Position numbers and translations under genes: made by a program | The notes under the pieces: generated by a model | Told to the model about the DNA's origin: nothing | What the model saw: only the letters and a program-made list of their open reading frames with translations | Database searches by the model: none | Shown here: piece after piece, positions 1 to 55,908 of the stretch | Layout: every line of letters starts with the position of its first letter | Numbering within the stretch: the stretch's first letter is position 1 | Sequence record: PZ386957.1 | Length of the DNA: 64,000 bases | Reading direction: 5' to 3' (one strand) | DNA from: a phage

Positions 1-163
1 CCCAATCAAATTTTTCTGATAAAGAAACCTGTAGACCTGTTTGCATGTCCAGCATCACCTGAAACGGATCTTTACCGTCCATAATCGCACCATGATAAGC
101 GGCGATTGCCGCATCGAGATCTTTTTCGTTAACCAGTTTAGCGCAAGAATTAAATTCTGACAT
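1..163 (-). CDS. hypothetical protein, 5' part only (gene runs off the window edge)
   Basis: ATG at 163 preceded by GAGGTG Shine-Dalgarno; frame open to position 1; same orientation as and downstream of the primase gene. Confidence 0.5.
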   Translation of the reverse strand, partial: MSEFNSCAKLVNEKDLDAAIAAYHGAIMDGKDPFQVMLDMQTGLQVSLSEKFDW

Positions 164-173
164 ATTCACCTCA

Positions 174-1202
174 TTAAAATTTACAATATTTCATAAACCG
201 CATTTTAGCCATCAGACCTTGTACGGTGTTCTCTTTGATATATTCCATGATCTGGTCGCGTGTAGCGCCCTCGTCCTGAATCATGGCGTTAACGTCTTTA
301 GAATGCCACGGGCAACGATCCCACAAAACAATCTTTTCCCCCGCATTGATAAACTTTTCCAGTCGGTGCATTGTATCGGCTGACCGTGGTTCCGCATCAA
401 GTACAAACACTCGCTGGTCTGGGAAAGGGATTTCATCTAATCCCAGAGTACCGCCAGTAATTGCACACCCGTTATCAATAAACAATGAATCGATCGGACC
501 TTCTAAGAAATACACTGGCTTACTCGGATCGGCGCGTTCAAGACCATAGACCTTACTCGCTAACTCGTGAGTTTTAATCGTCATATATTTGGTCTTTCCG
601 TAATCCTTTCTCAATGCTCGCCCCTGAATGGATTCTATCTTGTTCTCGCGGTTAAAGATAGGAATCACTAAACGCGGTTCAGGTTGTGGATTCTTGAAAG
701 TATCAGCCTTAATGTGATTTGCTACCTTTTGCCATTCTCTCGTGAAATACAGAAGATCCCATTTATCGTGGGGAATGCAACGATCACTGACATACTTTAT
801 TATAGGATGATTAGCCGGAAGAGTATCTAATCTTTCACAGAAAGGCAATGTTTGCACTTTCTTAATTTCCGGCTTTTCAACTTTTTTCAGTGGTTTAAAC
901 GTAGTGCTTTTATGATCGCCTTGTTCTTTTCGTCTTTCCATAAGCCATTCCCTGAATAGGTCCGGCTTATACTGCTTGAGGAACTCCCCTAGCGGCTGAT
1001 TATAGTTACAGTTGAAACAGCCGCATCGCAAACTATCTTTATATGTATAGATACGGAATCGCGCTTGAGTATGATTTTTCTTTGAGTCACCGCAGATCGG
1101 ACAACTTGCTACCAGTGTAAATGAGCTAGTATGCAACCGTTTAAAATTTCGTTCGCCGTATATGGCTTTTTCCGCTATTTCATAATCTGCGTAGTAAATC
1201 AT
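174..1202 (-). CDS. 61: DNA primase (T4 gp61-like)
   Basis: 342 aa; zinc ribbon CPICGDS...CGCFNC, Toprim-like EGPIDSLF and C-terminal EGAT..QIMEY.K recalled from T4 gp61; synteny next to helicase 41. Confidence 0.9.
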   Translation of the reverse strand: MIYYADYEIAEKAIYGERNFKRLHTSSFTLVASCPICGDSKKNHTQARFRIYTYKDSLRCGCFNCNYNQPLGEFLKQYKPDLFREWLMERRKEQGDHKSTTFKPLKKVEKPEIKKVQTLPFCERLDTLPANHPIIKYVSDRCIPHDKWDLLYFTREWQKVANHIKADTFKNPQPEPRLVIPIFNRENKIESIQGRALRKDYGKTKYMTIKTHELASKVYGLERADPSKPVYFLEGPIDSLFIDNGCAITGGTLGLDEIPFPDQRVFVLDAEPRSADTMHRLEKFINAGEKIVLWDRCPWHSKDVNAMIQDEGATRDQIMEYIKENTVQGLMAKMRFMKYCKF

Positions 1203-2826: not shown

Positions 2827-4239
2827 TTAGAAAGTCATGTTATTTGCTAGCTCGTCGAGTTTTTCGCGTTTCTCGGCTTGCTGTGCGCTTTGTGGTTTAA
2901 TTTGTGCGTTCTCCTGGTCGGCGATCTGGTTTGGAACTTCATACCAACGCTGATTTCCTTTTTTCACACCAACGTTAAAGCGAGAATAATAGTTCTTATC
3001 GCCGTAACGAGATTTGATCTGCTTGAGCAGTTGAACGCCCATTTTTGCAAGGTCTTCGGTTTCAATCACACCCAACATAAAATCGGCTGTAGCCGGAAGA
3101 CCTGCGGATTCAGCGGTATCACTCATGTTAAGGTCCGATGCATCCCATCCCGCGCGAGTAGTCTGTGCCGCAGTCCAGCCAACAACATCCCACTTAACAA
3201 AAAATCCTCGCAGTTCTTCCGCAATAGCCTTAACTAGTGTGTAACTGTTTTCAGAGTATACACGCAAACGAGACGATGCGCAAATCCCCAGATAGTCAAC
3301 AATTACAACATCAGGTTTAAACTGTTTCTTGAGTCGCAATTCATTCATTAACGCCTCAAAGTGGTTGGAGTTCGCGCCACCAGTCGGATATTGCTTGATC
3401 ATCAGCTTGCCGATTGGACGTTCTCCGGCTTTCTTATTCTTAACACGTTTCATACGTGCCGAATATTCAGCAAAAGAAACATTACCATTATCCAATTCAT
3501 CTAAGGTAATGTCAAGCAAGTTTGCGTCAATACGTTTTGCTACTACGTGCTCTGCCATCTCCATTGAGATATACAGGACATTATAACCACATTCCATATA
3601 ATCGGCAGCGAGAGAACATAAGCCCAATGATTTACCAACGTTTACACCAGCAAGCAACACATTCAAGGTCTTTTTCTCTGCCCCACCTTTCGTTATTTTA
3701 TTCAGACTAGGCAGCTTAAACGGGATCTTATTCGCTTTAGTCTGATATAACAAGAATCGTTTTTCAAAGTCATTAAACCAGTCATGACCTACATCAGAAT
3801 CAAACGTAATGGATAGTGCCTCCTGCATGATCTCAGGAATAGCGCCCTCGCCTGGCAATTTCTTATTCTGTTTTTCTTTTGGTAGCTGTGCGTTCGCCTG
3901 AATCTCTAGCGCCCGTGACATTGCATTATACATAGCACGGTCACGAATAAATTTTTCTGTTTCCTTCATTAACCAATCAAGGTCTTCCGGTGTATTCTCC
4001 AAAGAATCAAGAAGAGTTTTAGCCCCTTCATATGTTGTCTGATTGCCTCTCTCCTTGTCTAAAGCAATCTGTAATGCTGTAGGGGTAGGAATATTGGAAT
4101 ATTCGTCTACATGCTTTTTAATCAGCTTATAAATCAGTTTTTCTTCGTCTTCGGTGAAGTAGTCCGCTTTAAGATGAGGCCATACATTCGTGAAGAATGT
4201 GCCATTATAAATCAACTGTGAAAAGATAGTTTTAATCAT
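2827..4239 (-). CDS. 41: replicative DNA helicase (DnaB-like, T4 gp41-like)
   Basis: 470 aa; Walker A GVNVGKS and RecA-like core; size and position match T4 gp41. Confidence 0.9.
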   Translation of the reverse strand: MIKTIFSQLIYNGTFFTNVWPHLKADYFTEDEEKLIYKLIKKHVDEYSNIPTPTALQIALDKERGNQTTYEGAKTLLDSLENTPEDLDWLMKETEKFIRDRAMYNAMSRALEIQANAQLPKEKQNKKLPGEGAIPEIMQEALSITFDSDVGHDWFNDFEKRFLLYQTKANKIPFKLPSLNKITKGGAEKKTLNVLLAGVNVGKSLGLCSLAADYMECGYNVLYISMEMAEHVVAKRIDANLLDITLDELDNGNVSFAEYSARMKRVKNKKAGERPIGKLMIKQYPTGGANSNHFEALMNELRLKKQFKPDVVIVDYLGICASSRLRVYSENSYTLVKAIAEELRGFFVKWDVVGWTAAQTTRAGWDASDLNMSDTAESAGLPATADFMLGVIETEDLAKMGVQLLKQIKSRYGDKNYYSRFNVGVKKGNQRWYEVPNQIADQENAQIKPQSAQQAEKREKLDELANNMTF

Positions 4240-4241
4240 AC

Positions 4242-4553
4242 TTAGCCTCCAACTACACGCATAACAAAGGTCTTGAGTTTATACCAGAAAGTTTCTTTTT
4301 TCAACTTTTCTTCTGCTTCTTTGATCTGCGCGGTTAACGCCTTAATGACGTGAGGATATACCACATCACGATCTGACGGCGTGGAGTAGTCGACCACAAT
4401 ACCTTTAGTGTCTGGATCGTATTCAACATTATGAATATAGACAATATGATGCTCTCCCTCTTCATCAACAATTATCAGTTCCTGAATAACTGTCTTCATT
4501 GCTTCTTGAATCAAGCCGTGTGCTTCTTCTAAACTCGTTGGTTTCTTATCCAT
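4242..4553 (-). CDS. hypothetical protein in the T4 gene 40 position
   Basis: 103 aa ORF between uvsX and 41 where T4 has gene 40; GAGAGG RBS upstream; no sequence motif confirmed. Confidence 0.5.
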   Translation of the reverse strand: MDKKPTSLEEAHGLIQEAMKTVIQELIIVDEEGEHHIVYIHNVEYDPDTKGIVVDYSTPSDRDVVYPHVIKALTAQIKEAEEKLKKETFWYKLKTFVMRVVGG

Positions 4554-4576
4554 AATATAATCCTCTCTAGATATGA

Positions 4577-4597
4577 AAAAGGGGCACGTAGCCCCTT
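4577..4597 (-). terminator. hairpin after uvsX, possible intrinsic terminator or attenuator
   Basis: GGGGC-ACGTA-GCCCC stem-loop with flanking A/T run immediately 3' of the uvsX stop. Confidence 0.4.
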
Positions 4598-4608
4598 TAC
4601 TACCATTG

Positions 4609-5679
4609 TTATGCTAACATATCTTCGATTTCTTTGTCAACTGCTTCGTCGCTGATCACTTGCCCCAGCTTATAATGGTCATTGATTGCTTCGTTAAACT
4701 TATCGTTTGTCAGAAGTGGTTTCCAGAACTCAATGCTGTTGGTTTCTTTAGCACGGAACTTTCGTTCTTCGGTTTCCATCTCTCCGGTCTCAGTATTCAG
4801 GATGGAACGAGAATACCAGCCGTTTGACGGTTTCACTACCCAACCTAACTCTACAGCCAATTCTAGCAAACCGGAATAAGGATCGATACCACCGCTAAAG
4901 GTTACGCTAATCGGGAACTTAGATTTTTCTTTAACGGTTCGTGATTTTTCCGCATTCAGGATAAAATCATAACCAGTAATTTCGGTTCCTTCTTTCTGTT
5001 GACGACGACCGATAATAAAGCATTCGTTGGCGCTGTACATTGCGCCCGTACCACCGGACATAACGGTCTTGCTAAACATTTCTTGCGTTTCGTATGTGTG
5101 GTTAATCGCAATGCACGGAATGTCATTCATAGTCAGATATGGTGTAATCATACGGAACAAGCCTTTAAGTGCTTTAGCTCGCGTCATATCCTGCGCCGAT
5201 TTCTCATTAATCGCGTCTTCAACTTCTTTTTTGCTTGCTAAGTTACCGATTGAGTCAATAAAGATGATCACTTTATCTTCACGGGTAATTTGCTCAAGCT
5301 GGTTCATGATCTCAAATTTAAGTTCTTCGATGTTCTTGATTGGAACGTGTACCACGCGATCAGGATCTACACCCATAGATGACAGATATGCGGAAGTAAT
5401 ACCAAACTCAGAATCAAAGAACAAACAAGCCGCATCAGGATTCTGTTTCATGTATGCACTAACACAAGTTAATCCCATGTTTGATTTAAAGTGCTTAGAT
5501 GGACCAGCAAAGAAAATCAGACCAGATTGAAAGCCTTTTTTAAGATCACCAGAAAACGCAATATTCAGCATCGGGATCTTAGTGCGAGTATTTGTTTTTT
5601 CGTTAAAGAAGCTGGATTTAGACAGTACCGCAGTAGTTTTCAGGGTAGAGTTCTTTTTCAGTTTTTCCAGTACAGACAT
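4609..5679 (-). CDS. uvsX: UvsX recombinase (RecA/Rad51 family)
   Basis: 356 aa; near-colinear with recalled T4 UvsX (FFNEK..RTKIPM.NIA.SG, GPSK.FKSN, IAINHTYETQEMFSKTVM.GGTG). Confidence 0.92.
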   Translation of the reverse strand: MSVLEKLKKNSTLKTTAVLSKSSFFNEKTNTRTKIPMLNIAFSGDLKKGFQSGLIFFAGPSKHFKSNMGLTCVSAYMKQNPDAACLFFDSEFGITSAYLSSMGVDPDRVVHVPIKNIEELKFEIMNQLEQITREDKVIIFIDSIGNLASKKEVEDAINEKSAQDMTRAKALKGLFRMITPYLTMNDIPCIAINHTYETQEMFSKTVMSGGTGAMYSANECFIIGRRQQKEGTEITGYDFILNAEKSRTVKEKSKFPISVTFSGGIDPYSGLLELAVELGWVVKPSNGWYSRSILNTETGEMETEERKFRAKETNSIEFWKPLLTNDKFNEAINDHYKLGQVISDEAVDKEIEDMLA

Positions 5680-5690
5680 TATTAATACCT

Positions 5691-5918
5691 CTATTCAGTT
5701 AATCCGTAATACTTTAATTGCTTCATTGTTATTCGATCTTTGTAGTGCTCTTGAATTAACTTTTTCATCGCATCAACATCGATCGTCACAAATACTTCGT
5801 TGCTGTGATTTCCGTGAACTTTCTTGAAGTGCTCTATCGCGTCCTCTCGTTCACGTCTAATCTTTTCGATATCTCTCATAGTATATTTCTCACGCTGGCG
5901 GGTATCGTCACCCAACAC
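5691..5918 (-). CDS. hypothetical small protein
   Basis: 75 aa ORF; the only gene between polymerase and uvsX, where T4 carries imm, 42 and beta-gt. Confidence 0.45.
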   Translation of the reverse strand: MLGDDTRQREKYTMRDIEKIRREREDAIEHFKKVHGNHSNEVFVTIDVDAMKKLIQEHYKDRITMKQLKYYGLTE

Positions 5919-5940
5919 CCGCCATTATACACACTTTATC

Positions 5941-7380
5941 TTAAATGTCAAACAGGTCCGTAAGCGATGCCACTTTTTCATATTGCAGCTTTGCAGCCGT
6001 GGTAATGTTCTCCAGTGGTTTGACGAAAGTCTTATTGAACAACAAAGACCAGTCCAACCACTTTAACACCTCTGATTCAATTTCTGGAGGAATACGAGTA
6101 CCAGACAACCAACCAAAACAGATTTCTCCAAACGGATTTCGATCTTTGAGCGGTACGATCATAACTTTCTCGCCCTCACGAATCGGATCTAGTCCAAATT
6201 TTCGAGCATTACGATTATAACACAATACGCTCTTAACCGCATACGGACAGCCCTTAATCGGATACCCGTTTGAATCGCTGTATTTCTGTAGGTTGTTTGC
6301 AGATGATACCGCAGCAACCTCAAGATAGTCAAGTTTTCTAAATTCTTGCTCAAAAATACCGTAGTATTCCTGCAATGACTCTTCACCTTCCTGCAACATA
6401 CGACGAATACATTCTTTCAGTGATTTCTGACATGCTTTAGGTGTAGAACTACGTTGCGTTTCTAAGCCCATGATTTTTAGCTTAGGTTCAGCAAAGCGAG
6501 TTCCTTCCATATCCCAAACATTAAGAGCATAACGCTTTTTACCAGTCCAGAATCCACCGATACCCGCAGATTTCAACGGAGGACCAGCAATTGCCTCACG
6601 GTCCATAAACATCAAGTGCTCATAGTTGTTCATGTACTCGCATAACTCGCGATATCCCTTGTCGATAATAGGTTCCATTCGATGTTTACCGAAATTATCA
6701 AGGAAGTCAACAAGTTTTTCGGTATCGTCGAAACGGTCTTCCCCACCAACCTTATCAACAACATTGTTAACCAGCACATAAACGGAGTCAGTATCACAAT
6801 AACGAACATATGCAAAATCGGTTGTTCCGCAAAGTTCGTTTAAGTATTCGTTAATCTTACGCTCAATCCACTGAATTGCAAGCTGACCGAACAAAGTGAT
6901 CGCACTAGCATTACGCAGATCATACAAACGAAATTTCGGATTTCCTACATATTTTCAATGAGTCGCGCAACCAACTCACCCGCCGTTAGGCTGCTGCATA
7001 TCGCTATGCAGATAAGACTATATCACCTATCAACCGAAGTCAATAGCCCACCATTTCGAGCGCCATTAGCTTGCACCCTACACCGTTACACTCATCACGG
7101 TTAGTCGTTAGGCATTTACAGCATTATAGCTGATTTAGCACGGGATTGTCAACCAGTCCGTATACGTTGATATTCCCCGTTTAGATGGGTTTAAGGTGCG
7201 CTAGGATGTTTACGCACCATAAAGGCTGTTAATCAATACCTTTCGTGAAAGTTGGTTTGTGTTACATAGAATAGACTCGTCTTGACATATCGCTAGATGC
7301 CGTTCTAATTCCTCGATTGGTAACGAATCAAGATAGGCCAATTCTTCATCGGTGAAGTCTTTACGATGATCTATATTCAT
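5941..7380 (-). CDS. 43: DNA polymerase C-terminal subunit gp43B, intron-containing: exon 1 = 7212..7380, group I intron = 6948..7211, exon 2 = 5941..6947
   Basis: ATG at 7380 (AAGGAG RBS) overlaps the HEG stop as ATGA; exon 1 encodes MNIDHRKDFTDEEL...NTNQLSRKVLINSLYGA (motif B KxxxNSxYG); joining U7212 to U6947 reads ...LYGALGNPKFRLYDLRN, colinear with T4 ...LYGALGNIHFRYYDLRN; exon 2 carries motif C YCDTDSVYV; spliced product 391 aa. Confidence 0.82.
6948..7211 (-). ncRNA. group I self-splicing intron, ORF-less, within gene 43B
   Basis: 5' exon end GGUGCGU pairs with intron GCGCACC (P1, U-G wobble at splice site); adjacent intron CCUA pairs with 3' exon UAGG (P10); intron ends in G; internal P/Q/R/S-like elements (CGGGGAAUAUCAACG, AAUCCCGUGC, AACGACUAA, GAUAUAGUCU); two in-frame stops inside. 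Confidence 0.75.
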
Positions 7381-8198
7381 GATATATCTTTCTCCTTAAG
7401 CCGACAATTGTTAAAATGCCAGCGTTTTAAAGACTGTGCAACTCCAGATTTACCGCAATGTGGACATACAGCAATAATTTTCTTGCTTTCTTCCCAGCGT
7501 TTCTTTGCGGCTTCTTTCATCTTTTCTTTAGAGTCGTCAGACATTTTCTTACCTTTCATGCCCTTAACGCAATCTGGATTTTCTGCTATTCTAGCAAGCA
7601 TTCTTTGTCTTTGCAACTCTTTTTTCTCGTCGCTCCACCCTGCGGATATTTTATCACGTTCTTCCTGTGATAGCGTCTTACCAACTTGTTTGTGTGGATT
7701 TTTAGAATAATATTCTTTTAATCCTTTAGCGATCTTTGCCTTTGTATCATCAGAGTGAGATTTGTCAATATCTTTGTTGCTATTATACTTCTCGATGTTT
7801 CTTTTTGAAACGGCATCATAAAATTCTTTGTTTGACTTTCTCGTCTTTTTGATACCGTTAGAAACTTTGACAGCAATTACCGGATTTTTCATCGGGTTAT
7901 TGTCGCCGGAAGTGTCGATGTGATAGAAGCCACCGACACCGCCTAACGTGATGTTATATGTATCAGACCGCTTTAGAAAGTCTTCGTTTACGATCTCGGC
8001 CTCTTTGTCATAAGCGTCTTTCTCGTTATCATATTCAAACAGAATATCTTTATGGAAGTTTTCGACCCCATACTTCGCGATAGCTCGTTTGATATGAATA
8101 CCGCTACCCATATATGAATCATCTGGGTCGTCGGTCTTGTGTACACCAACATAGATCATATTGTTTATCTTATTTGTGATCCGATACACATAATACAT
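7377..8198 (-). CDS. freestanding GIY-YIG homing endonuclease (Seg-like) inserted between 43A and 43B
   Basis: 273 aa; N-terminal GIY-YIG module YVYRITNKINNMIYVGVH, repeated NUMOD3-like S..E.R.KIS segments, C-terminal CPHCGKSG zinc finger; start overlaps 43A stop (TAATG), stop overlaps 43B start (ATGA). Confidence 0.85.
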   Translation of the reverse strand: MYYVYRITNKINNMIYVGVHKTDDPDDSYMGSGIHIKRAIAKYGVENFHKDILFEYDNEKDAYDKEAEIVNEDFLKRSDTYNITLGGVGGFYHIDTSGDNNPMKNPVIAVKVSNGIKKTRKSNKEFYDAVSKRNIEKYNSNKDIDKSHSDDTKAKIAKGLKEYYSKNPHKQVGKTLSQEERDKISAGWSDEKKELQRQRMLARIAENPDCVKGMKGKKMSDDSKEKMKEAAKKRWEESKKIIAVCPHCGKSGVAQSLKRWHFNNCRLKEKDIS

Positions 8199-9685
8199 TA
8201 TTCACCTCGTCGTTTCTTTAACATCTCCTTAATCTTTTCAGCATTACGGTCACACGCCAACATCATGTTTTTGTACTGTTTACGCTGGTCGAACACCTTT
8301 TTGATTTCAATCGGTACTACACCCTGAATATCTTTTCGATACATCCAACCGTTAGGAGAACATGAGTATTCATCGCTAGGCCGTTCCGCTGTTTTATTAA
8401 TATAGTCGATCATTGGCGCGGTGTCAAATGATCCAGCTATAGTTTCCGGCGAAATGTTAACCTGTCGGATGATAGACGGATACAGACTTGTTAAGTCAAA
8501 GCTCATCATCCAACGGTAAGCATTAGGTACTGGTTCTTTTACAAAAGCACCTGGATACGTCTGCTTAGGCTGTATCTTATTTTCCGGTACTACTTTACCC
8601 TCAGCTTTCAGAGATCCGAAGATAATAGCATCCCATACCTTCATCGGGTTATACACATGGTTAAATTTAATCTTTGCATAGTAGCATAGACTATACACAA
8701 GATCGATAAATCCGCGCTTTTTATCAATCGCCAATACACGATCAACGTCGCCGATGTTATAATCGATGTAAAGTTGATGGTTGTCATCACGCAATTTCTT
8801 TAACGGACCATCATAATCAACCTTACCGATTCCTGTCTCATATTCAGCAACATAATCTAATGCATATGTTGGTTGAGTCGTAAAGCTGAATTTCTTGTAC
8901 AGGTCAATGTAATCAAGGCTTTCGATCCCCATGATCGTAAATGCTTCACGCTCGTTGCCAAAATCATCCTGTGAGATTCGGGATTTAATCTTACCGCACG
9001 GGCTTAATCGGTTTGCCGTTCGACTTCCAAACTTATTACTGATACGCTTAATGATATACGGGATATCGAATGTTTCTGTGTTCCAGCCAGTGAAACCAAC
9101 TGGTCGATTTTCCTCAAAGAATCGGATGTATTCTAACAGCAATTCATCTTCCGTATCGTAGACGTTATAAACAACACGCTCTACTATATCAGGTCGAAGA
9201 ATAGACTTTCTTGCTTCCCATATTTCACCGTTTTTGCCTTTCAAATCAAAGACAAAGAAACGATCATGTACGGAATCATAATGCGTAATTGCATCAATAG
9301 GATATTTTGCTTCTTCTGGCTTCGGGAATTCCGGCGCAGTAACCTCAATATCAACCCATGCTACACGGATTTTATTTCGGTCATATCGAATCTCACCCTT
9401 GTATGTGTCGGATAGATAGGAGATGATAAAATCATCCATTCCTAACGCCTCTTGCCCCATCTCTCCCATCTTTTTACGCCATTTGTTGGCCTCGTTCATA
9501 GATGGGAATTTTTTAGCAATGCAAGGCTTGCCATAGATATCTTTATAATTAGTAACCATACCAGGCGCGGCATGATGAAATAAAGTTGGCGTATACTCAA
9601 CGTAACGCTCTTGTTCTTGTCCGGTATCATCAATATAACGCTCGTAGATCTTATCACCTACTCTCTCACATGACAGAAAATACAT
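8198..9685 (-). CDS. 43: DNA polymerase N-terminal subunit gp43A (N-terminal and 3'-5' exonuclease domains, motif A)
   Basis: Start refined to ATG 9685 (MYFLSCERVGDKIYERYIDD vs T4 MKEFYISIETVGNNIVERYIDE); contains FDIPY, YNI.DV, DLTSLYPSIIRQVNISPET; ends with TAA where T4 gp43 continues. Confidence 0.9.
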   Translation of the reverse strand: MYFLSCERVGDKIYERYIDDTGQEQERYVEYTPTLFHHAAPGMVTNYKDIYGKPCIAKKFPSMNEANKWRKKMGEMGQEALGMDDFIISYLSDTYKGEIRYDRNKIRVAWVDIEVTAPEFPKPEEAKYPIDAITHYDSVHDRFFVFDLKGKNGEIWEARKSILRPDIVERVVYNVYDTEDELLLEYIRFFEENRPVGFTGWNTETFDIPYIIKRISNKFGSRTANRLSPCGKIKSRISQDDFGNEREAFTIMGIESLDYIDLYKKFSFTTQPTYALDYVAEYETGIGKVDYDGPLKKLRDDNHQLYIDYNIGDVDRVLAIDKKRGFIDLVYSLCYYAKIKFNHVYNPMKVWDAIIFGSLKAEGKVVPENKIQPKQTYPGAFVKEPVPNAYRWMMSFDLTSLYPSIIRQVNISPETIAGSFDTAPMIDYINKTAERPSDEYSCSPNGWMYRKDIQGVVPIEIKKVFDQRKQYKNMMLACDRNAEKIKEMLKKRRGE

Positions 9686-9717
9686 AATATAAACTCCTTC
9701 ACTTACGAAAGACACTC

Positions 9718-9746
9718 ATTATAGGGGAATCGACTTAGTTTGTCAA
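9718..9746 (-). promoter_or_regulatory. sigma70-type early promoter upstream of gene 43A
   Basis: Minus strand reads TTGACA-17 nt-TATAAT; flanked by inverted repeat ATAGGGG/CCCCTAT. Confidence 0.6.
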
Positions 9747-9767
9747 TACCCCTATCCCATCAGTATC

Positions 9768-10130
9768 TTAGCGTCCGATCTGATACTTTTCGATCAGTGT
9801 CCATTCTTCTTTCTGTTTGAAAGACAGAACACGGAAGTTATTCACTTCGGTAGTTTCAAAATCACTATCAATCAGGGTACACAGATTCCACTGCGCAAGA
9901 AGTTTTGCAATGTTATTACGGCGTAACTCATCTTCCCACGTCATTTTAACACTACGACCATCTAATTTCAATAACTCCTTGAAGTGAACGATATAATAGC
10001 GCCCTTTCTTCTGGAGAATATGACAAGATTGATACAGTGTCTTGTCTCGATTATTGGCAATGCCGCAGCGGGTTAAAGTCTCCTTAATTTTAAGGAAGTT
10101 TTCAGGATTAATCAAATTAATTTCAATCAT
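9768..10130 (-). CDS. regA: RegA translational repressor
   Basis: 120 aa; MIEI.L..PE.FLK.KETLTR.GIANN.DK.LYQSCHILQKKG.YYIVHFKE matches recalled T4 RegA almost residue by residue. Confidence 0.92.
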   Translation of the reverse strand: MIEINLINPENFLKIKETLTRCGIANNRDKTLYQSCHILQKKGRYYIVHFKELLKLDGRSVKMTWEDELRRNNIAKLLAQWNLCTLIDSDFETTEVNNFRVLSFKQKEEWTLIEKYQIGR

Positions 10131-10131
10131 T

Positions 10132-10710
10132 TTACCACCTTTCTATAATCTTTTTAAGTCGTTTCCTTTCTGTTTGGTTCTTAGTAACACCCGCCAAAAG
10201 TTCATCGGTCGCATACGGTTTAATGTGCTTCAATAACTTGTCCATATATCCCTTTTCATTAGCCAAATCGAGATAAAACCGGGCGTCATCCATATTTACA
10301 CAATATGCTTTCGCCACTGCCATTAAAACCAATTTTTGGTCCAATTCTTCTGTTAGTTTAGCCCATTTACCGTATCGTTTCCCCTTAGAAATACTCTGTA
10401 AGAGATAATCAAAATGCATTTGATCTGGGAGGCCATGACCGATTAAATTCATCACATACGCGCTATATAGGCAATCTGCGTGCTGGGAAAGAGCGGTGTT
10501 AATCCATCTCTGGTTATATGCAGAATTGTTTCCCACATTAACGTGCTGTTTATCTAAGGTGATATGATCCATCAGAGCAAATAATGCATTGTCGGTTTTC
10601 TCGGTGAATGTATCCGCTAATTCAGACACCTTTTCCCAATCACGAGAGCGCCATGCAATTTCATGCTCGTTTAATTGTGTATCATCTTCACCGAAAAATT
10701 GACCTAACAT
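10132..10710 (-). CDS. 62: clamp loader small subunit (gp62-like)
   Basis: 192 aa; QLNEHEIAW, KRYGKWAKL and C-terminal QLKK motifs recalled from T4 gp62; synteny regA-62-44-45. Confidence 0.8.
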   Translation of the reverse strand: MLGQFFGEDDTQLNEHEIAWRSRDWEKVSELADTFTEKTDNALFALMDHITLDKQHVNVGNNSAYNQRWINTALSQHADCLYSAYVMNLIGHGLPDQMHFDYLLQSISKGKRYGKWAKLTEELDQKLVLMAVAKAYCVNMDDARFYLDLANEKGYMDKLLKHIKPYATDELLAGVTKNQTERKRLKKIIERW

Positions 10711-11684
10711 TATACGAACTCCAATTCAACCATTAATTGCATTAACAAAAAGACAATGTGAATCTCTTTATCAGCCGCGTGCGCAAACATCTGATTATTT
10801 TCACCGATAATCTCAGTGAGACGAATAATAGACGCTGGCTTAACTTGAGTATACAACTCATTATAAAGTTTCTTGACAAATTGAGCGTATGTATTGGTAT
10901 AGCGTGGTGCGAGTTTACGCACATTAGCAAACTGTTTAGTTTTAAGTGCTTCCACCACATCGGTTACTTCGGTATTGCTACTTTCGATAACCATGCTCAA
11001 TACGCCAGCATCAATTTTACCATGTTTAGCGTAGCGGTCCAAAAGTTTCATTACGCGTCGGAAGTCTGGGAAGTTCTGCTTAACCAGTTCCGCCAATACG
11101 CGCATTTCTTCTACTGGCACACCTTCTTTATCAAGAATTGCTTTGCACCGGACGATCATTTCTTTCATCATGCGAAGCTGATCATCTTTAGTCGGAGATC
11201 CAAACGTGATGGGATCAAATCGAGATCGCAACGCTGGGATAATACCTTCTAGATCGTTTGCTGTGATAATGAATGTCACGTTGTTTGAGTATGCCTCAGA
11301 GAAACTACGCAAGTGTCTTTGAGCGTCAGCCAACCCCGCTCGGTCATACTCATCGATAATAACAACTTTGCCTTTTTCTCGTTTTTCTTCATCGAGTGAT
11401 ACACTCTGCGCAAAGCGTGTAATCTCATCGCGGATAAAATCAATCTTACAATCTGCGCCGTTAACAAACAGATAATCAACACCCACATCTTCGCAAAGCG
11501 CCTTAGCAACGGTTGTTTTACCAGTACCCGGCGATGGGCTATGCAGGATCATAGAAGGGATTCGGCCTTGCTTAACAATCTGCGCGAAGATCTTTTTATC
11601 TGCTTCCGGCAGAATACATTCAGAAATTGATTTCGGACGGTATTTCTGTTCCCACTGAAACTCATTTTCATTAACACTCAGCAT
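10710..11684 (-). CDS. 44: clamp loader large subunit (AAA+ ATPase, gp44-like)
   Basis: Walker A SPSPGTGKTTVAKALC, Walker B IIDEYDR; start refined to ATG 11684 with GAGG RBS; ATGA overlap with gene 62. Confidence 0.88.
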   Translation of the reverse strand: MLSVNENEFQWEQKYRPKSISECILPEADKKIFAQIVKQGRIPSMILHSPSPGTGKTTVAKALCEDVGVDYLFVNGADCKIDFIRDEITRFAQSVSLDEEKREKGKVVIIDEYDRAGLADAQRHLRSFSEAYSNNVTFIITANDLEGIIPALRSRFDPITFGSPTKDDQLRMMKEMIVRCKAILDKEGVPVEEMRVLAELVKQNFPDFRRVMKLLDRYAKHGKIDAGVLSMVIESSNTEVTDVVEALKTKQFANVRKLAPRYTNTYAQFVKKLYNELYTQVKPASIIRLTEIIGENNQMFAHAADKEIHIVFLLMQLMVELEFV

Positions 11685-11749
11685 ATAATCACCTCTCACA
11701 AATTACATCATTAAAACGGGGAGTATTTACACTCCCCACAAACATTATA

Positions 11750-16552: not shown

Positions 16553-17578
16553 CTAATTTTTTGCGCTATTTACTTCGGCTAAAAGTTCATCAGAAATACG
16601 CTTGACCGCCGCAAGTTCTTCCGGTTCTAGGTTTTGTTCTTCCAGATATTCATAGACCATCTGAATAGTGCTTTTAACCTCAATAACACCAGTTTCCTGT
16701 GATGCGCTACTCTCCAGCTTATGGACCACTTTTAGCTTGTGTACAACGGCCTCTAACGCGCTTTCTAACTTAGTTAACCCATTATCAGCGACCGTTGCGA
16801 TAAGACGCACACTAAGCCCCTTATAGCGTTCTACATCGATTTTATCATCTGACGGGTAAGTGATACGCACATGATAAGTTTTGTCGTTCTGGATAAACTC
16901 TTTTTTGTGTGTATCGGTATCAAATACCCAAAAACCACGCGGATCATTTTCGTCACCAGCCGTTAGTGTGTATGGTGTACCGATATACGTTACGTTACCG
17001 CCATCACTGATAGTATGAAAGTGACCAGAAAACACTTCACGGTATTTCTTGAGGAAGTCCGCGCTATAACCTTCGGATTTTAACCCTTTATAGAAATAGT
17101 AACCGGACAATTCCCAATGACCTACACAATATTCGCTAAATGAATTTTGAATAAACTCTAAAACCTCGGATTTATTGTCATCACAAAACCACGGGAACAG
17201 GTCGAATGATACCCCGTCAAAGCTAACGGTTTCCGGCTTATCAATGACCTTAATGCAATCATACTGGCTTAACACTTCACGCGGTGCGTTAGGCTGGATC
17301 TTGTTTCGTTTAAACATATCATGATTGCCTACCGTGATATAACAGGTGATTCCTGCCTCTTCCAGTAATGGGATGACCTTAGTACGGTTAAATTTCATGG
17401 TTTCATGAGTTATCGCCTTGCGGCAATCAAACCAATCCCCTGTCTGAATCCATGTCTTAATATCATGTTCTTTTGAGTATTCAACCGCTTTCTTGATGGT
17501 ATCAAGAATATAATCATGTACCCACGGATCATCGCCACCGATACCAGTATGCAGATCACCCAAAAGCAAAATTTTCAT
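16553..17578 (-). CDS. 47: recombination nuclease subunit gp47 (Mre11/SbcD-like phosphoesterase)
   Basis: 341 aa; calcineurin-like motifs LLLGDLH, GDWFD, GNHD, GHFH. Confidence 0.9.
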   Translation of the reverse strand: MKILLLGDLHTGIGGDDPWVHDYILDTIKKAVEYSKEHDIKTWIQTGDWFDCRKAITHETMKFNRTKVIPLLEEAGITCYITVGNHDMFKRNKIQPNAPREVLSQYDCIKVIDKPETVSFDGVSFDLFPWFCDDNKSEVLEFIQNSFSEYCVGHWELSGYYFYKGLKSEGYSADFLKKYREVFSGHFHTISDGGNVTYIGTPYTLTAGDENDPRGFWVFDTDTHKKEFIQNDKTYHVRITYPSDDKIDVERYKGLSVRLIATVADNGLTKLESALEAVVHKLKVVHKLESSASQETGVIEVKSTIQMVYEYLEEQNLEPEELAAVKRISDELLAEVNSAKN

Positions 17579-17668
17579 AGTCTCTTCCTCTCTTCGTTTT
17601 CGATGCTCTCACTATATCATAGAAAAATAAAAAGGGAAACCCCTTTCAGAGTCTCCCTTATAAAGCCA

Positions 17669-17956
17669 TTACAGCATACTTAATACCGTTTGACGTGTAC
17701 TAACCCACATAGCGGAAAGCAGTTCTGGAGTGTGTGGCTGTTTGTAGATATCACGTAATTTTCCGATAGCGTAGATATACGCATCACGGTTATCATCGAT
17801 GATAGCTTGTTCAGCCCACCGCTTAAGGCGTGCAATCTCTCGCGAGTTCTTACGCAAGATCTTTTCCGCTTTCTTAGCGGCTTTCGCCTCTAGTTCTGCT
17901 TGTACTTTGTCTACTTCATTCACTACAATCTGGTCATGTTGTTCATCGTAAGTCAT
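17669..17956 (-). CDS. hypothetical small protein
   Basis: 95 aa ORF in the T4 alpha-gt interval; much too small to be a glucosyltransferase. Confidence 0.45.
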   Translation of the reverse strand: MTYDEQHDQIVVNEVDKVQAELEAKAAKKAEKILRKNSREIARLKRWAEQAIIDDNRDAYIYAIGKLRDIYKQPHTPELLSAMWVSTRQTVLSML

Positions 17957-17957
17957 A

Positions 17958-18191
17958 TTATTTTCCTTCTGGGATATAGTCGATGATTAAAGAAAATTCA
18001 TCTTCTGATACATTATAGCTATGTGAGATTGTACCCGTCAAGACCTCAAGATCCGGTGACTTGATATTACACGGATCGATAATCACCGGAACGCCGCAAT
18101 CTCTCAAAAATAATTTGGCGAAATACGGCACAAGGTCAGTTTCAAACTCTGCTTCTTCCAGCAAACGGGAAATATTAATTTTCAATCTCAT
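17958..18191 (-). CDS. hypothetical small protein
   Basis: 77 aa ORF. Confidence 0.4.
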
Positions 18192-18708
18192 AGAATTGGT
18201 CCAGGCTAGGCAATTCCTCGGTCAATACATCTTCAACCTTCGGCGCTTTCGGCTTATTGACCGATTCCTCGTAATTGTTGATCTTATCGTAAATGTCCTG
18301 AATGAATGCCTCATCAGCAATCTGGCACATATCAGCGTCGCGTTCGTCATATACATGATGCACAAAATACTTATATTTTGCGGCTGTCGCTGTTCTTTCT
18401 TTTTTAATGCGCTGTACAAAGGCATTAAAGCACGCTTGCGTAATGTAAGCATGAGGATTTTTATACTTTGTCTCGTCAAAATTAATCAAACCTTTGACCG
18501 CCGCTTCGATTCCATCGTCGATCATTTCTTCGCGCCATGTTTGACTATAACCAGAAAAGTTAAAACGCCGTGATAGATTTTTAGAGATTTGCATAATTGC
18601 TAGACCGATTTGATCGCTCATTGGAACTTGTCGACCTTCGGCTGCAATTCGCTGTTTCCAACGACAAATTTCTTCGTAAAGTTCTTTATTGTTTACATAA
18701 TCAGACAC
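18175..18708 (-). CDS. 55: late-transcription sigma factor gp55
   Basis: 177 aa; [57 protein letters not shown] matches recalled T4 gp55. Confidence 0.92.
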
Positions 18709-29790: not shown

Positions 29791-30264
29791 CTATCTTAAT
29801 CTTTGTATAAATTGTTTCTTATACTTCTTCGTGATCTCTTCTCTTGTATCAGCGTCACAGTAATCGAAACCTTCTGCGTCCATAATAGCAACCATCTCCG
29901 CGCGTGTCAAGCGTGAAAATCGTTTTACTTTATCAACAGCATATTGAGGATGTAAATGATTGTTGGTGTAGTCTCCTTTGATGTAATTAACATAGTTTGT
30001 AGCCCAAACAACGAAATCAGCACCTAAAGCACCAACACCAAACCGTTTAAAGTCTCCGGTCAACGATCCTTCTAGGCGGTTGCAACACGAATGAAGCAAT
30101 CCCCTTACGCGGCCTTGCCCTTTACCATCTAGATCGTGGTCGTGGTCAAGATGGTTTTTGCTCATATCCTCAAAAAGTGGCAATTGACAAAGGGGGCAAA
30201 TGCCCCCCTGTTTTTCGAATAGTTCTTGTTTGTACTCTTTAGCACTCTTAGCAGTCAGTAACAT
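29791..30264 (-). CDS. 49: recombination endonuclease VII (gp49, Holliday junction resolvase)
   Basis: Start refined to ATG 30264 (MLLTAK, GGAGGG RBS); CPLCQ and HLDHDHDL motifs; colinear with recalled T4 gp49. Confidence 0.88.
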   Translation of the reverse strand: MLLTAKSAKEYKQELFEKQGGICPLCQLPLFEDMSKNHLDHDHDLDGKGQGRVRGLLHSCCNRLEGSLTGDFKRFGVGALGADFVVWATNYVNYIKGDYTNNHLHPQYAVDKVKRFSRLTRAEMVAIMDAEGFDYCDADTREEITKKYKKQFIQRLR

Positions 30265-30288
30265 AAATTCACCCTCCAAAGAAGGTAT

Positions 30289-30570
30289 TTAACCATGAAT
30301 CTTGTTTTTGACTACAAAGGATCGGAACTCATCAAAGCCACCAATATAATCACCATCATAGAAAATCTGCGGCATGGTGGCAATAACTTCTACCCCTGCG
30401 CGATCCTGAATATCGGCAATGATAGAATCAATCTTTACAGGGCGACCGTTTTCGTCCACACCATCATTAACCGGAATGTAGATGTAAGGGATCTTACGCG
30501 CTTCACAAAGGCGCTTTGCATTCTGGCAATACTTACAGTTGTAACCTTCAAAACCAAAAATTTCTACCAT
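30289..30570 (-). CDS. nrdC: thioredoxin/glutaredoxin NrdC
   Basis: CKYC active site (T4 NrdC CVYC), conserved IGGFD..R.F; start refined to ATG 30570. Confidence 0.8.
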   Translation of the reverse strand: MVEIFGFEGYNCKYCQNAKRLCEARKIPYIYIPVNDGVDENGRPVKIDSIIADIQDRAGVEVIATMPQIFYDGDYIGGFDEFRSFVVKNKIHG

Positions 30571-30578
30571 GTTATACC

Positions 30579-31391
30579 TCAATCTACGTTAGTTACATAA
30601 ACTTCTTGCGTATCAGAAGACTTGCCACCTGAACGATCTAGGCAATAGGTCTTATTCAACAGGACGCAGTTTAAATCATTCCGCTTGATAAAATCAAGCA
30701 AATGGTTGTTAACTTTCCCTTTGTGGTGAGTAACATTGCTTAATCCAAACTTAGTACCGCTAGACATTAATGATTCTATCCACATGTAGAATTTAATCTC
30801 TTCTTCTTCACTCCAGAACTTATTATATTCTGCCGACGTGATCCAATATGGCGGGTCCAAATAAACGAAATCACCGGGCAAGATCTCGATCTCGTCATAA
30901 CGACCAGACGTAAAATTGATTCGACCGTCTTTGTTTTCTTCTTTAAAATTCAGGACACGCTCTACCGCGTTTTCGTTAAAAGTCCGGCGACCAAAATTAG
31001 CATTAAATTCGCCCTTTCGGTTATGGCGGTTAATGTTGCTAAAACTATGCTGAATCAGAACAAACAGAGATAGCGGATCTGGATTCTCGTTATACTTCTT
31101 GCGGAATGCCATATAAGAATCTTTATCATCACGAGACAAACCATTCTCGGCAATAATCCGCTTGATCGTAGAAACCGGATCAGGGCACTCGTCAATCGCT
31201 TTGTAAGCATCAATTAAGCGGTGATCATAGTCATTAGCCAGAACATCCCCTTCGACGTACAGAGACACGCTCAAACCGCCACAAAAGGCATCGACAAAGC
31301 GGTTATAGTGCTTAGGGAAATACTTACTAACACCTGGCAATAACTTTTCCTTATTGCCAGTATAGGGAATTAAACCTAATGCTTTCTTCAT
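30579..31391 (-). CDS. dam: DNA adenine methyltransferase (Dam, N6-A MTase)
   Basis: 270 aa; AdoMet motif FVD.FCGGLSVSL and catalytic DPPY; colinear with recalled T4 Dam. Confidence 0.88.
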   Translation of the reverse strand: MKKALGLIPYTGNKEKLLPGVSKYFPKHYNRFVDAFCGGLSVSLYVEGDVLANDYDHRLIDAYKAIDECPDPVSTIKRIIAENGLSRDDKDSYMAFRKKYNENPDPLSLFVLIQHSFSNINRHNRKGEFNANFGRRTFNENAVERVLNFKEENKDGRINFTSGRYDEIEILPGDFVYLDPPYWITSAEYNKFWSEEEEIKFYMWIESLMSSGTKFGLSNVTHHKGKVNNHLLDFIKRNDLNCVLLNKTYCLDRSGGKSSDTQEVYVTNVD

Positions 31392-31822
31392 TATCCCTTC
31401 CTCAAATAAGTTCTTTCAATTTCTACCAGTTCGAAAAATTCATCCCAATCACACGGAAAATTGCAGTTTCCGAAATGATCCTCTTTGTAAAGTTCTTTAC
31501 CGGATGGCAGCTTAATATCTGTTACGCTGTAGTATCCGCAACAATCGCAATCACCATCTGTATATTCTGTTTTGGTAGGAATATCCATCATTGCCAGATA
31601 CAAAGGTACATCGTCTTGCTCAAAGTTCATGTAACCTTCATGGTCGAATGAAACAAAGTTATCATCGCCACCGAAAGGGATATAGTGGTCATAATCGGTT
31701 ACAGGTTGACCGTGCAATTCCCATTCTACAATTTTAACATTACCGCTAAACTTGATACCCATAATTTCAACAAGAAAATGAGTATCGTCAATGTAAATCT
31801 TACTAGGAGTTGGATAAACCAT
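31391..31822 (-). CDS. hypothetical protein
   Basis: 143 aa ORF, Cys-rich C-terminus (DGDCDCCGY, CNFPC). Confidence 0.5.
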   Translation of the reverse strand: MVYPTPSKIYIDDTHFLVEIMGIKFSGNVKIVEWELHGQPVTDYDHYIPFGGDDNFVSFDHEGYMNFEQDDVPLYLAMMDIPTKTEYTDGDCDCCGYYSVTDIKLPSGKELYKEDHFGNCNFPCDWDEFFELVEIERTYLRKG

Positions 31823-35008: not shown

Positions 35009-35018
35009 AATTTAATCC

Positions 35019-46909: not shown

Positions 46910-46937
46910 TATTCACCCCCTTTGTGAGTGATAATAT

Positions 46938-47129: not shown

Positions 47130-47130
47130 A

Positions 47131-47713: not shown

Positions 47714-47774
47714 AGAAAGCCCTCCAGTGAGCTAAATTAGTGCGGGTAGTACATTCTCCTACCCGCGTTGTTAA

Positions 47775-47933: not shown

Positions 47934-47935
47934 TA

Positions 47936-55897: not shown

Positions 55898-55908
55898 AAT
55901 ATTATCCT

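Follow-up and report, generated by a model that had tools for sequence, protein, structure and literature searches.

Absence of hydroxymethylase and glucosyltransferase genes and presence of a dam-nrdC-49 block in a 64-kb segment of a phage assigned to Krischvirus

The stretch of phage DNA analysed in this study (i.e., the window, 64 kb) contains no dCMP hydroxymethylase or DNA glucosyltransferase genes at the positions where T4 carries them, and it encodes a full-length Dam methyltransferase next to nrdC. The explanation that we consider best, with a probability of about 0.88, is that the window comes from an RB49-like Krischvirus that is without the genes for hydroxymethylcytosine (hmC) synthesis and glucosylation, has ordinary cytosine in its DNA and possesses its own Dam, which most likely methylates GATC. 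Whether cytosine is plain or hypermodified decides which restriction, CRISPR and type IV defences can strike a T4-like phage; it also decides whether the phage DNA is amenable to cloning and cutting and how easily host DNA is transduced, and transduction matters for phage therapy. The cytosine status of RB49-type phages has been known since their genomes were published and was verified experimentally, and the window adds no new biology in this respect. The gene distribution, the lack of hmC in RB49 and the canonical cytosine of TB34 are all published; because the same gene absences are already known for the genus Krischvirus, the finding is correct but ordinary.

By its sequence, the window is ~64 kb of an RB49-like Krischvirus of the family Straboviridae, outside the Tevenvirinae. 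The replication block has 96% nucleotide identity to Krischvirus and the variable block (28-52 kb) 90-92%, the number of matching records being 59-66, and the core proteins of Krischvirus/RB49 are 95-99% identical to their counterparts in the window. Nearly all the ORFs of the window map onto RB49 in the same order, and the order from gene 56 to gene 7 is identical to that in RB49 (NC_005066), Phi1, JSE, GEC-3S, TB34 and SAP. The replication and recombination genes are also shared with T4, with their order kept. No database record is a perfect match for the window, and searches for exact copies of its homing endonuclease and Dam sequences, and of a 32-nt intron probe in IMG/VR, were negative. 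At positions where RB49 lacks them, the window has an Ig/Hoc-like ORF of 715 aa and an HNH-AP2 gene (59677-60231), while the HNH gene found between 47 and a-gt.4 of RB49 is missing from the window. Given that the observation is one of gene content, chance is not at issue; the real limit is that 64 kb of a genome of ~165 kb was seen, and the complete RB49 and SAP genomes stood in for the remainder.

Gene content at the junctions that carry modification genes in T4

The uvsX recombinase gene (4609..5679, minus strand; Pfam T4_UVSX_C, 4.7e-35; 63% identity to T4 UvsX) and gene 43, whose stop codon is at 5941, are 261 nt apart, and the sole gene inside this interval is a small conserved ORF (5691..5918, minus strand) that corresponds to RB49p025 (93% identity) and matches phrog_12120 (1.9e-40, residues 14-75). 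In T4, the order is uvsX-segA-b-gt-42-imm-imm.1-43 (NC_000866 annotation). The 261 nt therefore leave no room for remnants of 42, beta-gt and imm, and the uvsX-small ORF-43 junction of RB49 and other Krischvirus is as compact as that of the window. A consensus sigma-70 promoter of the T4 early type is predicted at 5924..5951 on the minus strand (TTGACA-16-TATAAT, 12/12 matches). It overlaps the end of gene 43, has an annotated early promoter at the same place in RB49 and would drive the small ORF and uvsX. Because this promoter ends only ~6 nt before the GTG at 5918 and because RB49p025 and the 62-residue profile of PHROG 12120 align with the small ORF from residue 14 on, the true start is probably the ATG at 5879, which would give a protein of 62 aa. 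The sequence-only reading was thus right in placing a single ORF between gene 43 and uvsX, while its length of 75 aa is probably too long. The T4 imm, imm.1, 42, b-gt and segA products showed no similarity to this ORF in tblastn searches, and its peptide is a hydrophilic, strongly charged sequence, whereas Imm is a membrane protein. We consequently rejected the ORF as a remnant of imm, imm.1 or segA; the PHROG that it matches is of the Krischvirus type and has no function assignment.

The junction between gene 47 and gene 55 is similarly reduced. Gene 47, encoding an Mre11/SbcD-like nuclease subunit (16553..17578; 56% identity to T4 gp47, E 9e-116; Pfam Metallophos), and gene 55, encoding the late sigma factor (18175..18708; 61% identity to T4 gp55, E 6e-68), are separated by exactly two small ORFs, as had been noted from the sequence alone, and all four are on the minus strand. 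The two ORFs are the orthologues of T4 a-gt.4 (17669..17956; DUF2654, 5.8e-23; 44% identity, E 2e-12) and a-gt.5 (17958..18191; 32% identity, E 2e-7; phrog_1169, 4e-29). The T4 order is 47-47.1-a-gt-mobB-a-gt.2..5-55 (NC_000866 annotation), while RB49 and other Krischvirus have the same 47-(a-gt.4)-(a-gt.5)-55 arrangement as the window. The T4 genes without counterpart in the window are 42, b-gt, a-gt, imm, imm.1, segA, mobB, 47.1 and a-gt.2/3, and the syntenic gaps for the glucosyltransferase genes measure 261 nt and, outside the small ORFs, 90 nt.

Searches beyond these junctions were also negative. With T4 gp42 as the tblastn query, no match was found in the window (best E 3.9), and the only match in the whole genomes of RB49 and SAP was the td paralogue (E 0.008 and 0.006). 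This match lies inside td, which is identified by Thymidylat_synt at 1e-84; it therefore reflects paralogy, and a hidden hydroxymethylase was rejected as its source. With T4 a-gt and b-gt as the only glucosyltransferase queries, the best tblastn E values were 0.5-1.8 in the window, RB49 and SAP, and neither Imm nor Imm.1 of T4 had a tblastn match in the window or the whole RB49 and SAP genomes. With 40 window proteins, plus four RB49 proteins, as queries, Pfam and PHROG searches revealed neither a glycosyltransferase nor a thymidylate-synthase-like domain in the window. The larger unassigned ORFs (715, 490, 392, 277, 211, 195, 194, 182, 179, 166, 164, and 159 aa) were considered as glycosyltransferases or base-modifying enzymes and rejected, as the same two collections returned only Ig/Hoc-like, DEAD-like or goF-like matches or nothing.

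Alc, EndoIV (denB) and Arn are T4 functions that are meaningful only with hmC DNA, as they discriminate or protect by cytosine status. No significant match to any of them was found in the window, RB49 or SAP. The two complete Krischvirus genomes resemble the window in having no 42, a-gt, b-gt, alc, denB or arn, and they have no ndd either. Other T4 homologues were kept in the set formed by the window, RB49 and SAP, including gp56 (49-51% identity), Dam (46%), DenA (49-50%) and Cd (56%), and orthologues of gp56, DenA, Cd, gp1 and Dam are found in both T4 and Krischvirus. Of gene 56, which encodes a protein of the dCTPase/dUTPase family, the window contains the 5' part, with the first ~49 codons (17..163, minus strand; tblastn with T4 gp56, 47% identity over 49 aa, E 7e-8), and the remainder is beyond the window edge. 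In RB49, the full gene 56 is directly downstream of gene 61, and the full gp56 of RB49 and SAP, for which the identity to T4 gp56 is given above, matches Pfam dUTPase_2. Among the four genes at issue (i.e., 42, 56, a-gt, and b-gt), 56 is thus the one present. It should be noted that a phage obliged to incorporate dCTP would not be expected to retain a gp56 homologue of the dCTPase family.

These absences are consistent with previous findings. RB49-type phages lack 42, denB and alc and possess 56 and denA (Petrov, 2010, Table 4), and RB49 was reported to be without hydroxymethylase and beta-gt (Yaung, 2014). HpaII and NheI cut RB49 DNA, and the digests show no hmC or glucosylated hmC (Yaung, 2014). 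The cytosine of Krischvirus TB34 was found to be canonical by HPLC/MS, while nothing is said on dam or hmC in the account of RB49 by Nolan (2006). Because the genus is without dCMP hydroxymethylase, DNA glucosyltransferases, Alc, EndoIV and Arn, we infer that this particular phage also has unmodified cytosine; it would replicate and package ordinary-cytosine DNA while retaining the nucleotide-pool enzymes that are independent of hmC, which would include the gp56 homologue, Cd, Td, gp1 and the Nrd proteins. The suggestion from the sequence alone that the phage probably does not make glucosyl-hydroxymethylcytosine DNA is supported by the missing gp42, a-gt, b-gt and Imm homologues, the absence of Alc, EndoIV and Arn, the restriction-site counts described below and the published chemistry of RB49 and TB34. 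Gene 42 and the glucosyltransferase genes could instead be located in the ~100 kb outside the window, given that the window is a partial view of the genome and that this phage differs from all the database records and carries insertions that RB49 lacks. We regard such a location as exceedingly improbable: the tblastn searches were negative across the whole RB49 and SAP genomes, the published distribution is negative for RB49, Phi1 and JSE (Petrov, 2010), and the window itself displays the site-avoidance signature of unprotected cytosine.

Dam methyltransferase and the dam-nrdC-49 block

The sequence-only reading of a full-length Dam-type methyltransferase at 30579-31391 was confirmed. The gene (minus strand) is predicted to encode a T4 Dam-like GATC N6-adenine DNA methyltransferase of the D12 class with 270 aa that matches PF02086 (MethyltransfD12; 1.4e-30, residues 10-224) and aligns with T4 Dam from end to end at 46% identity. 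Among solved structures, T4 Dam is the nearest (1YFJ, and also 1YF3 and 1Q0S; E 7e-65, full length), followed by M.DpnII (1.6e-15) and E. coli Dam (3e-9), and all the nearest ones are GATC methylases. In an alignment of seven T4-like Dam proteins, D179-P-P-Y182 (D171-P-P-Y174 in T4) and F36/G38/G39 of the AdoMet-binding FxGxG motif are invariant. In the T4 Dam-DNA structures, GATC is reportedly read by K11, S112, R116, P126 and R130. Four of these residues are conserved in the window Dam as K14, S118, R122 and R136, while N132 is in place of P126 and I120 is in place of M114; the same N is also found in KP15.

It is likely that the GATC specificity is unchanged despite the replacements of P126 by N and M114 by I. 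As these two residues are near the recognition loop of T4 Dam, the homologue might be inactive or have a specificity other than GATC, in which case the GATC sites of the phage would depend on host Dam only; our literature search found neither methylation data for the DNA of any Krischvirus or RB49-type phage nor biochemical data for the genus. We consider this improbable, given that the seven T4-like Dam proteins do not differ in any of the residues checked for catalysis, AdoMet binding and guanine contact, that the full-length gene is conserved in 59 of 59 Krischvirus records with 90-99% identity and that GATC is abundant and not avoided in the window. The Dam of this phage is thus most likely active. 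Expressed from the dam-nrdC-49 gene block as a full-length orthologue of T4 Dam, it would most likely turn GATC into G(m6A)TC on rapidly replicating phage DNA. Such methylation would shield about one site per 176 bp from nucleases of the MboI/DpnII type and would maintain full methylation at times when the host enzyme falls behind. Protection from restriction is accordingly the benefit that we infer for this enzyme, and the plentiful GATC sites of the window (363, Markov O/E 1.02) are in line with it.

As had been claimed from the sequence alone, the dam gene adjoins nrdC in the window, away from its T4 position; gene 49 is in the same block. Directly downstream of dam are the nrdC thioredoxin gene (30289..30582; 37% identity to T4 NrdC, E 3e-12; phrog_22 thioredoxin; RB49p062), whose start is probably an ATG near 30570 by the RB49 annotation, and gene 49 for endonuclease VII (29791..30279; 45% identity to T4 gp49, E 3e-44). 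On the other side, the stop of a conserved ORF without assigned function (31391..31822; RB49p064, 99% identity to RB49; phrog_8157, 2.4e-78) overlaps the dam start. All of these genes are on the minus strand. In T4, the order is 56-dam-61 (NC_000866), while gene 61 for primase in the window (174..1202, minus strand; 51% identity to T4 gp61, E 1e-110; 99% identity to RB49 gp61) abuts gene 56 directly, with no dam between them.

The same 49-nrdC-dam block is found in RB49 and other Krischvirus, in which dam is already annotated. The local dam-nrdC-49 order is also found in Slopekvirus KP15, the RB43-like Pseudotevenvirus CfP1 and Pectobacterium phage POP12, whose Dam proteins are the closest to the window Dam outside the genus (49-52% identity). 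The surroundings of the block vary: in KP15, CfP1 and POP12, at most one ORF is between 49 and the nrdD that follows it, while Krischvirus has several ORFs there, and nadV is upstream of dam in these three phages, unlike in Krischvirus. In Jiaodavirus KPV15 and Nanhuvirus LPCS28, dam is at yet other locations. Because the dam-nrdC-49 order is common to at least three other T4-like lineages, it may be T4 whose dam position is derived. Thus, describing the window dam as relocated is correct in that its position differs from that in T4, but the word is T4-centred, and the move may instead have taken place in the T4 lineage, a point that we consider mildly useful.

Restriction-site frequencies and the reported modification of SAP

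Restriction sites that contain C are avoided in the window. CCWGG occurs 28 times, compared to an expectation of 52.6 +/- 6.7, and its O/E of 0.40 is close to that of RB49 (0.38) and far below that of T4 (1.05). No EcoKI site is found in the window (5.4 +/- 2.1 expected) or in the whole RB49 and SAP genomes, while 84 kb of T4 contain five. For the window, RB49 and T4, the O/E values of GGCC are 0.56, 0.41 and 1.05, and those of AGCT are 0.59, 0.61 and 1.02, respectively. Strong avoidance of C-containing sites is also seen in SAP. For GATC, the Markov O/E (window, 1.02; RB49, 1.07) shows no depletion, compared to 0.33 in T4; the site statistics of T4 are thus opposite to those of the window. 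The 363 GATC sites of the window exceed the 261 +/- 13 found in dinucleotide shuffles by 8 sd. Because the trinucleotide-based expectation gives an O/E of 1.02, we rejected the reading of this enrichment as selection for GATC. Avoidance of C-containing sites together with the lack of GATC avoidance agrees with long-term unprotected cytosine and protected GATC, and this signature is new, independent and, for the cytosine, indirect genomic support for both, which makes it mildly useful.

These results bear on a 2026 paper, in which the DNA of Krischvirus SAP was reported to contain ~1/3 5-hmdC and ~2/3 alpha-gentiobiosyl-mdC without known pathway genes, and SAP was restricted by BrxU. SAP, which is reportedly 99.96% identical to the unmodified TB34, contains no homologue of gp42, a-gt or b-gt, so that in this one report the chemistry did not follow from the missing genes. 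Our phage could, in the same way, replace cytosine with hmC-derived bases by means of enzymes that are not related to T4 gp42, a-gt and b-gt. The genus retains gp56, gp1 and Cd homologues, and its td has an unusual insertion of ~140 aa, which would be in keeping with such a route. The DNA of RB49 and TB34 is, however, unmodified as determined by digestion and LC-MS, respectively, Alc, EndoIV and Arn are absent, and the avoidance of C-containing sites by SAP, RB49 and the window is unexpected for protected cytosines. The published modification profile of SAP is also that of seven Tequatroviruses from the same collection, and it would fit a mixed stock, which is suspected. We therefore regard replacement by unrelated enzymes as very improbable, and the narrower proposal of a sugar-modified, hmC-derived cytosine made as reported for SAP, by a pathway without a gp42-type hydroxymethylase or a recognisable DNA glycosyltransferase, as slightly more improbable still. 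If such a pathway did exist, gene content at the T4 positions would not predict DNA chemistry. Because SAP shares the site signature of RB49 and the window, the hmC-type DNA published for SAP becomes harder to reconcile with its genome, which we also consider mildly useful.

Interruption of gene 43

The more unusual feature of this neighbourhood is not the missing hmC genes but the interruption of gene 43 for DNA polymerase (5941..9715, minus strand), whose coding sequence is broken up by a homing endonuclease gene of the GIY-YIG type and by a group I intron. All its parts are on the minus strand: the cistron 43A (8198-9715), the GIY-YIG homing endonuclease ORF (7377-8198, 273 aa; GIY-YIG domain, 1.1e-5; phrog_314, 1e-46), exon 1 of 43B (7212-7380), the predicted group I intron (6948-7211) and exon 2 of 43B (5941-6947). 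The intron was recognized by RF00028 at 6994-7245 with 52 bits, compared to the gathering threshold of 50, and E 5.7e-12 in a local scan of 1.45 kb; a scan of the whole window with Rfam at gathering thresholds was empty, which was a filter effect. The intron is in 43B at the motif B site between LYGA and L, and deletion of 6948-7211 restores NSLYGALGNPKF as found in RB49. None of the 59 Krischvirus records has gene 43 split in this way. The same insertion site, immediately after TATGGTGCGT, and the same conserved intron core blocks are found in Aeromonas phage 25 and Mosigvirus G2285, and the window gene 43 matches the phage 25-type interruption, which consists of a split polB, a free-standing GIY-YIG homing endonuclease gene and an ORF-less group I intron.

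Gene order at the T4 hydroxymethylation loci

By megablast, positions 4000-12000 of the window were ~96% identical to 59 RB49-like phages of the genus Krischvirus and positions 28000-52000 were ~90-92% identical to 66 records, with no identical record among the database matches to these two regions. Mapping of all window ORFs showed near-complete collinearity with RB49 (NC_005066) from ~9.85 to 71.7 kb, and the core proteins were 95-99% identical to those of RB49. In the NCBI taxonomy, Krischvirus belongs to the Straboviridae, outside the Tevenvirinae. Several minus-strand ORFs (18749-20221, 43809-44120, 48550-48744, 35411-36229, and 55070-56385) were strongly diverged, while their neighbors were 95-99% identical to RB49. 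They are the ORF for a 490-aa DEAD-like protein (67% identity to RB49), two small ORFs (39 and 34%), the gp38 adhesin (61%) and genes 2 and 4 (78-79%), and diversifying selection or exchange may be concentrated at them.

The T4 gene orders assumed in the sequence-only reading (i.e., uvsX-segA-b-gt-42-imm-imm.1-43, 47-47.1-a-gt-mobB-a-gt.2-5-55, and 56-dam-61) agree with NC_000866, and all its coordinates held when the ORF layout was re-examined. Between uvsX (4609-5679, minus strand; T4_UVSX_C at 4.7e-35; 63% identity to T4 UvsX) and the end of gene 43 (5941, minus strand), a small ORF (5691-5918, minus strand) is indeed the sole gene. Its length, previously given as 75 aa, is most likely 62 aa with a start at ATG 5879, because a perfect sigma-70 consensus promoter (TTGACA-16-TATAAT; 5951..5924, minus strand), which overlaps the gene 43 end and stop codon, would put GTG 5918 about at the transcription start. 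The 62-aa version also agrees with the annotation of RB49p025, and the phrog_12120 profile (62 residues) aligns with the ORF from residue 14. Between genes 47 (16553-17578) and 55 (18175-18708) there are, as claimed, only two small ORFs, which are orthologues of T4 a-gt.4 (17669-17956; DUF2654; E 2e-12) and a-gt.5 (17958-18191; E 2e-7). The synteny with T4 is exact here, the window lacking no more than 47.1, a-gt, mobB, a-gt.2, and a-gt.3. The first ~49 codons of gene 56 (17-163) abut gene 61 with no space for dam.

Absence of the hydroxymethylcytosine module

Proteins of the annotated T4 genome served as tblastn queries against the window and the complete RB49 and SAP genomes. No match to the dCMP hydroxymethylase gp42 was found in the window, and a-gt, b-gt, Imm, Imm.1, Alc, EndoIV (denB), Arn, and Ndd had no significant match in any of the three sequences. 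The gp42 matches in RB49 (E 0.008) and SAP (E 0.006), considered as a hidden hydroxymethylase, fell only inside td, which encodes a genuine thymidylate synthase (1e-84). Homologues of gp56 (49-51%), DenA (49-50%), Cd (56%), and Dam (45-46%) were found. When 40 window proteins, among them every large unassigned one, and four RB49 proteins were compared with Pfam and PHROG profiles, those of the window showed neither a glycosyltransferase nor a thymidylate-synthase-like domain. Thus, the whole hydroxymethylcytosine (hmC) module is missing, i.e., synthesis, glucosylation and the functions attacking or ignoring cytosine DNA, and the hmC-independent pool enzymes are kept. Beyond the T4 positions, genes 42, a-gt, and b-gt were thus not found in the window or in complete RB49 and SAP, and gene 56 is retained.

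These results agree with previous findings that gene 42, denB, and alc are absent from RB49-type phages and that 56 and denA are present (Petrov et al., 2010, PMC2993671, Table 4). RB49 lacks hydroxymethylase and beta-glucosyltransferase, and its DNA is cut by HpaII and NheI and therefore contains neither hmC nor glucosyl-hmC (Yaung et al., 2014, PMC4041780). Unmodified cytosine was also found by others in the Krischvirus phage TB34, in which HPLC/MS detected canonical cytosine only, and Krischvirus was noted to lack the genes for hmC and glycosylation at the syntenic positions (2026 study, PMC13390438). Given this gene distribution, the RB49 digests, the TB34 HPLC/MS data and the RB49 RefSeq record, which already annotates dam adjoining nrdC, the lack of hmC genes is a correct observation that was already known for the genus. 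The missing genes and the Dam gene beside nrdC are thus confirmed, and the proposal that the DNA contains no glucosyl-hmC is supported; the present phage presumably behaves like RB49.

A different outcome was reported for SAP, which is 99.96% identical to TB34, with 5-hmdC and alpha-gentiobiosyl-mdC, restriction by BrxU and no explanatory gene; seven Tequatroviruses in the collection that includes SAP have a modification profile equal to that of SAP (2026 study, PMC13390438). The complete SAP genome contained no homologues of gp42, a-gt, b-gt, alc, denB, or arn detectable by tblastn, and its layout at all three loci is that of the window. A mixed stock would explain why the SAP profile equals that of the seven Tequatroviruses, which is only a suspicion. 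It is very improbable that the present phage has an unrecognized hmC-type pathway such as that reported for SAP.

Dam methyltransferase and restriction-site avoidance

The full-length Dam-type methyltransferase (270 aa; PF02086 at 1.4e-30) proposed at 30579-31391, away from the T4 location between 56 and 61, was borne out; it is directly followed by nrdC (30289-30582) and then gene 49 (29791-30279). The solved structures nearest to it all belong to GATC methylases, first T4 Dam (E 7e-65) and then M.DpnII and E. coli Dam. The DPPY motif (179-182) and the FxGxG region did not vary in an alignment with Dam of RB49, T4, KP15, CfP1, POP12, and KPV15, nor did the equivalents of T4 K11, S112, R116, and R130. 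Residues taken to read GATC were those of the T4 Dam-DNA structures; N in place of P126 and I in place of M114 were the sole differences among the positions compared. Dam is found in 59 of 59 Krischvirus records (90-99% identity), and its next relatives are the Dam proteins of other T4-like phages (44-52%). As this falls in the range of other window orthologues shared with T4 (45-63%), the sequences argue for vertical descent with positional change rather than separate capture from bacteria.

Slopekvirus KP15, Pseudotevenvirus CfP1, and Pectobacterium phage POP12 also have the dam-nrdC-49 order, with nrdD coming next or one ORF further on; in Jiaodavirus KPV15 and Nanhuvirus LPCS28, dam lies elsewhere. 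Of these locations, the one next to nrdC is therefore the most widely shared. Dam was described as relocated, and its position does differ from that in T4, but it may be T4 that has the derived arrangement, a polarity that we infer. Outside the region corresponding to the window, RB49 has two more annotated DNA methyltransferase genes, RB49p143 (34465-35304 of genome piece L003), with MTS and Eco57I-type N6-methylase signatures, and RB49p189 (25890-26606 of piece L004), for which Pfam gave no match; methylation besides that of Dam may therefore be present in Krischvirus DNA.

With cytosines unprotected over evolutionary time, the sites of C-sensitive host systems are expected to be avoided, which was the case. 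The observed/expected (O/E) ratios in the window, RB49 and T4 were, respectively, 0.40, 0.38, and 1.05 for CCWGG, 0.56, 0.41, and 1.05 for GGCC, 0.59, 0.61, and 1.02 for AGCT, and 0.66, 0.72, and 0.87 for GTAC. The window contained 28 CCWGG sites (52.6 +/- 6.7 in shuffles) and 0 EcoKI sites (AACN6GTGC; 5.4 +/- 2.1 expected), compared to 0 EcoKI sites in 164 kb of RB49 and 5 in 84 kb of T4. SAP has the same signature (0 EcoKI sites in 165 kb, 79 CCWGG, and 86 GGCC). GATC behaved in the opposite way to the C-containing sites, with 363 sites in the window and Markov O/E ratios of 1.02 in the window and 1.07 in RB49. In T4 the pattern is reversed, GATC being depleted (0.33) and the C-containing sites lying at ~1.0. 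Indirectly, this pattern fits exposed cytosine sites and GATC sites covered by Dam methylation. In such a phage, sigma-70-type promoters would drive early transcription of both the dam-nrdC-49 block and the replication genes, dCTP would be incorporated as such, and Dam, if active, would methylate GATC on newly replicated DNA and probably shield it from cleavage of the MboI/DpnII type; the remaining sites that contain C would be dealt with by avoidance, not modification.

The interrupted gene 43 and other observations

More noteworthy than the missing hmC genes is gene 43 (5941-9715, minus strand), directly upstream of the reported interval, which is a single gene of 2679 nt in RB49 and is in pieces in the window. 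Between 43A (8198-9715) and 43B lies a free-standing ORF for a 273-aa GIY-YIG homing endonuclease (7377-8198), and 43B exons 1 (7212-7380) and 2 (5941-6947) are separated by a predicted ORF-less group I intron of 264 nt (6948-7211; RF00028, 52 bits, E 5.7e-12), all on the minus strand. Excision of the intron in the sequence restores ..NSLYGALGNPKF.., as in RB49, at the motif B site (..LYGA|L..). Rfam at gathering thresholds gave no match in the whole window; in 1.45 kb alone the intron scored 52 bits against a family gathering score of 50, so genuine RNAs can be overlooked when a whole-window scan gives no match. The nearest relatives of the endonuclease lie in polymerase genes that are likewise split, those of Aeromonas phages 25, phiAS4, and Aes508 and Mosigvirus G2285; the cassette, intron insertion site and core sequence blocks are common to the window, Aeromonas phage 25, and Mosigvirus G2285. 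The cassette is in 0 of 59 Krischvirus records, and JSE gene 43 is interrupted too, at a different place. Judged by sequence, this is a known mobile cassette in a new host genus.

An HNH-AP2 homing endonuclease gene (59677-60231, plus strand) separates the PAAR-like gene from gene 6, a place at which RB49 has none; RB49p040, 37% identical to its product, lies between 47 and a-gt.4, an interval of only 90 nt in the window (17579-17668). A 715-aa ORF (37864-40011, minus strand) that gave weak matches to Ig_2 and to Hoc-like head decoration is represented in RB49 by only a 36-aa remnant between RB49p084 and rI.-1. Krischvirus td encodes 410 aa (RB49, 46870-48102 of piece L004; SAP, 10691-11923 of piece L016), while T4 Td is much shorter; the Pfam match in two stretches implies a putative in-frame insertion of ~140 aa in mid-enzyme. 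The 138-aa vs.6 homologue (45416-45832, minus strand) has a glycine-radical domain at its C terminus (PF01228, 4.2e-14) and resembles a free-standing spare glycyl-radical module, of a type that could repair anaerobic reductases or formate-lyase type enzymes damaged by oxygen.
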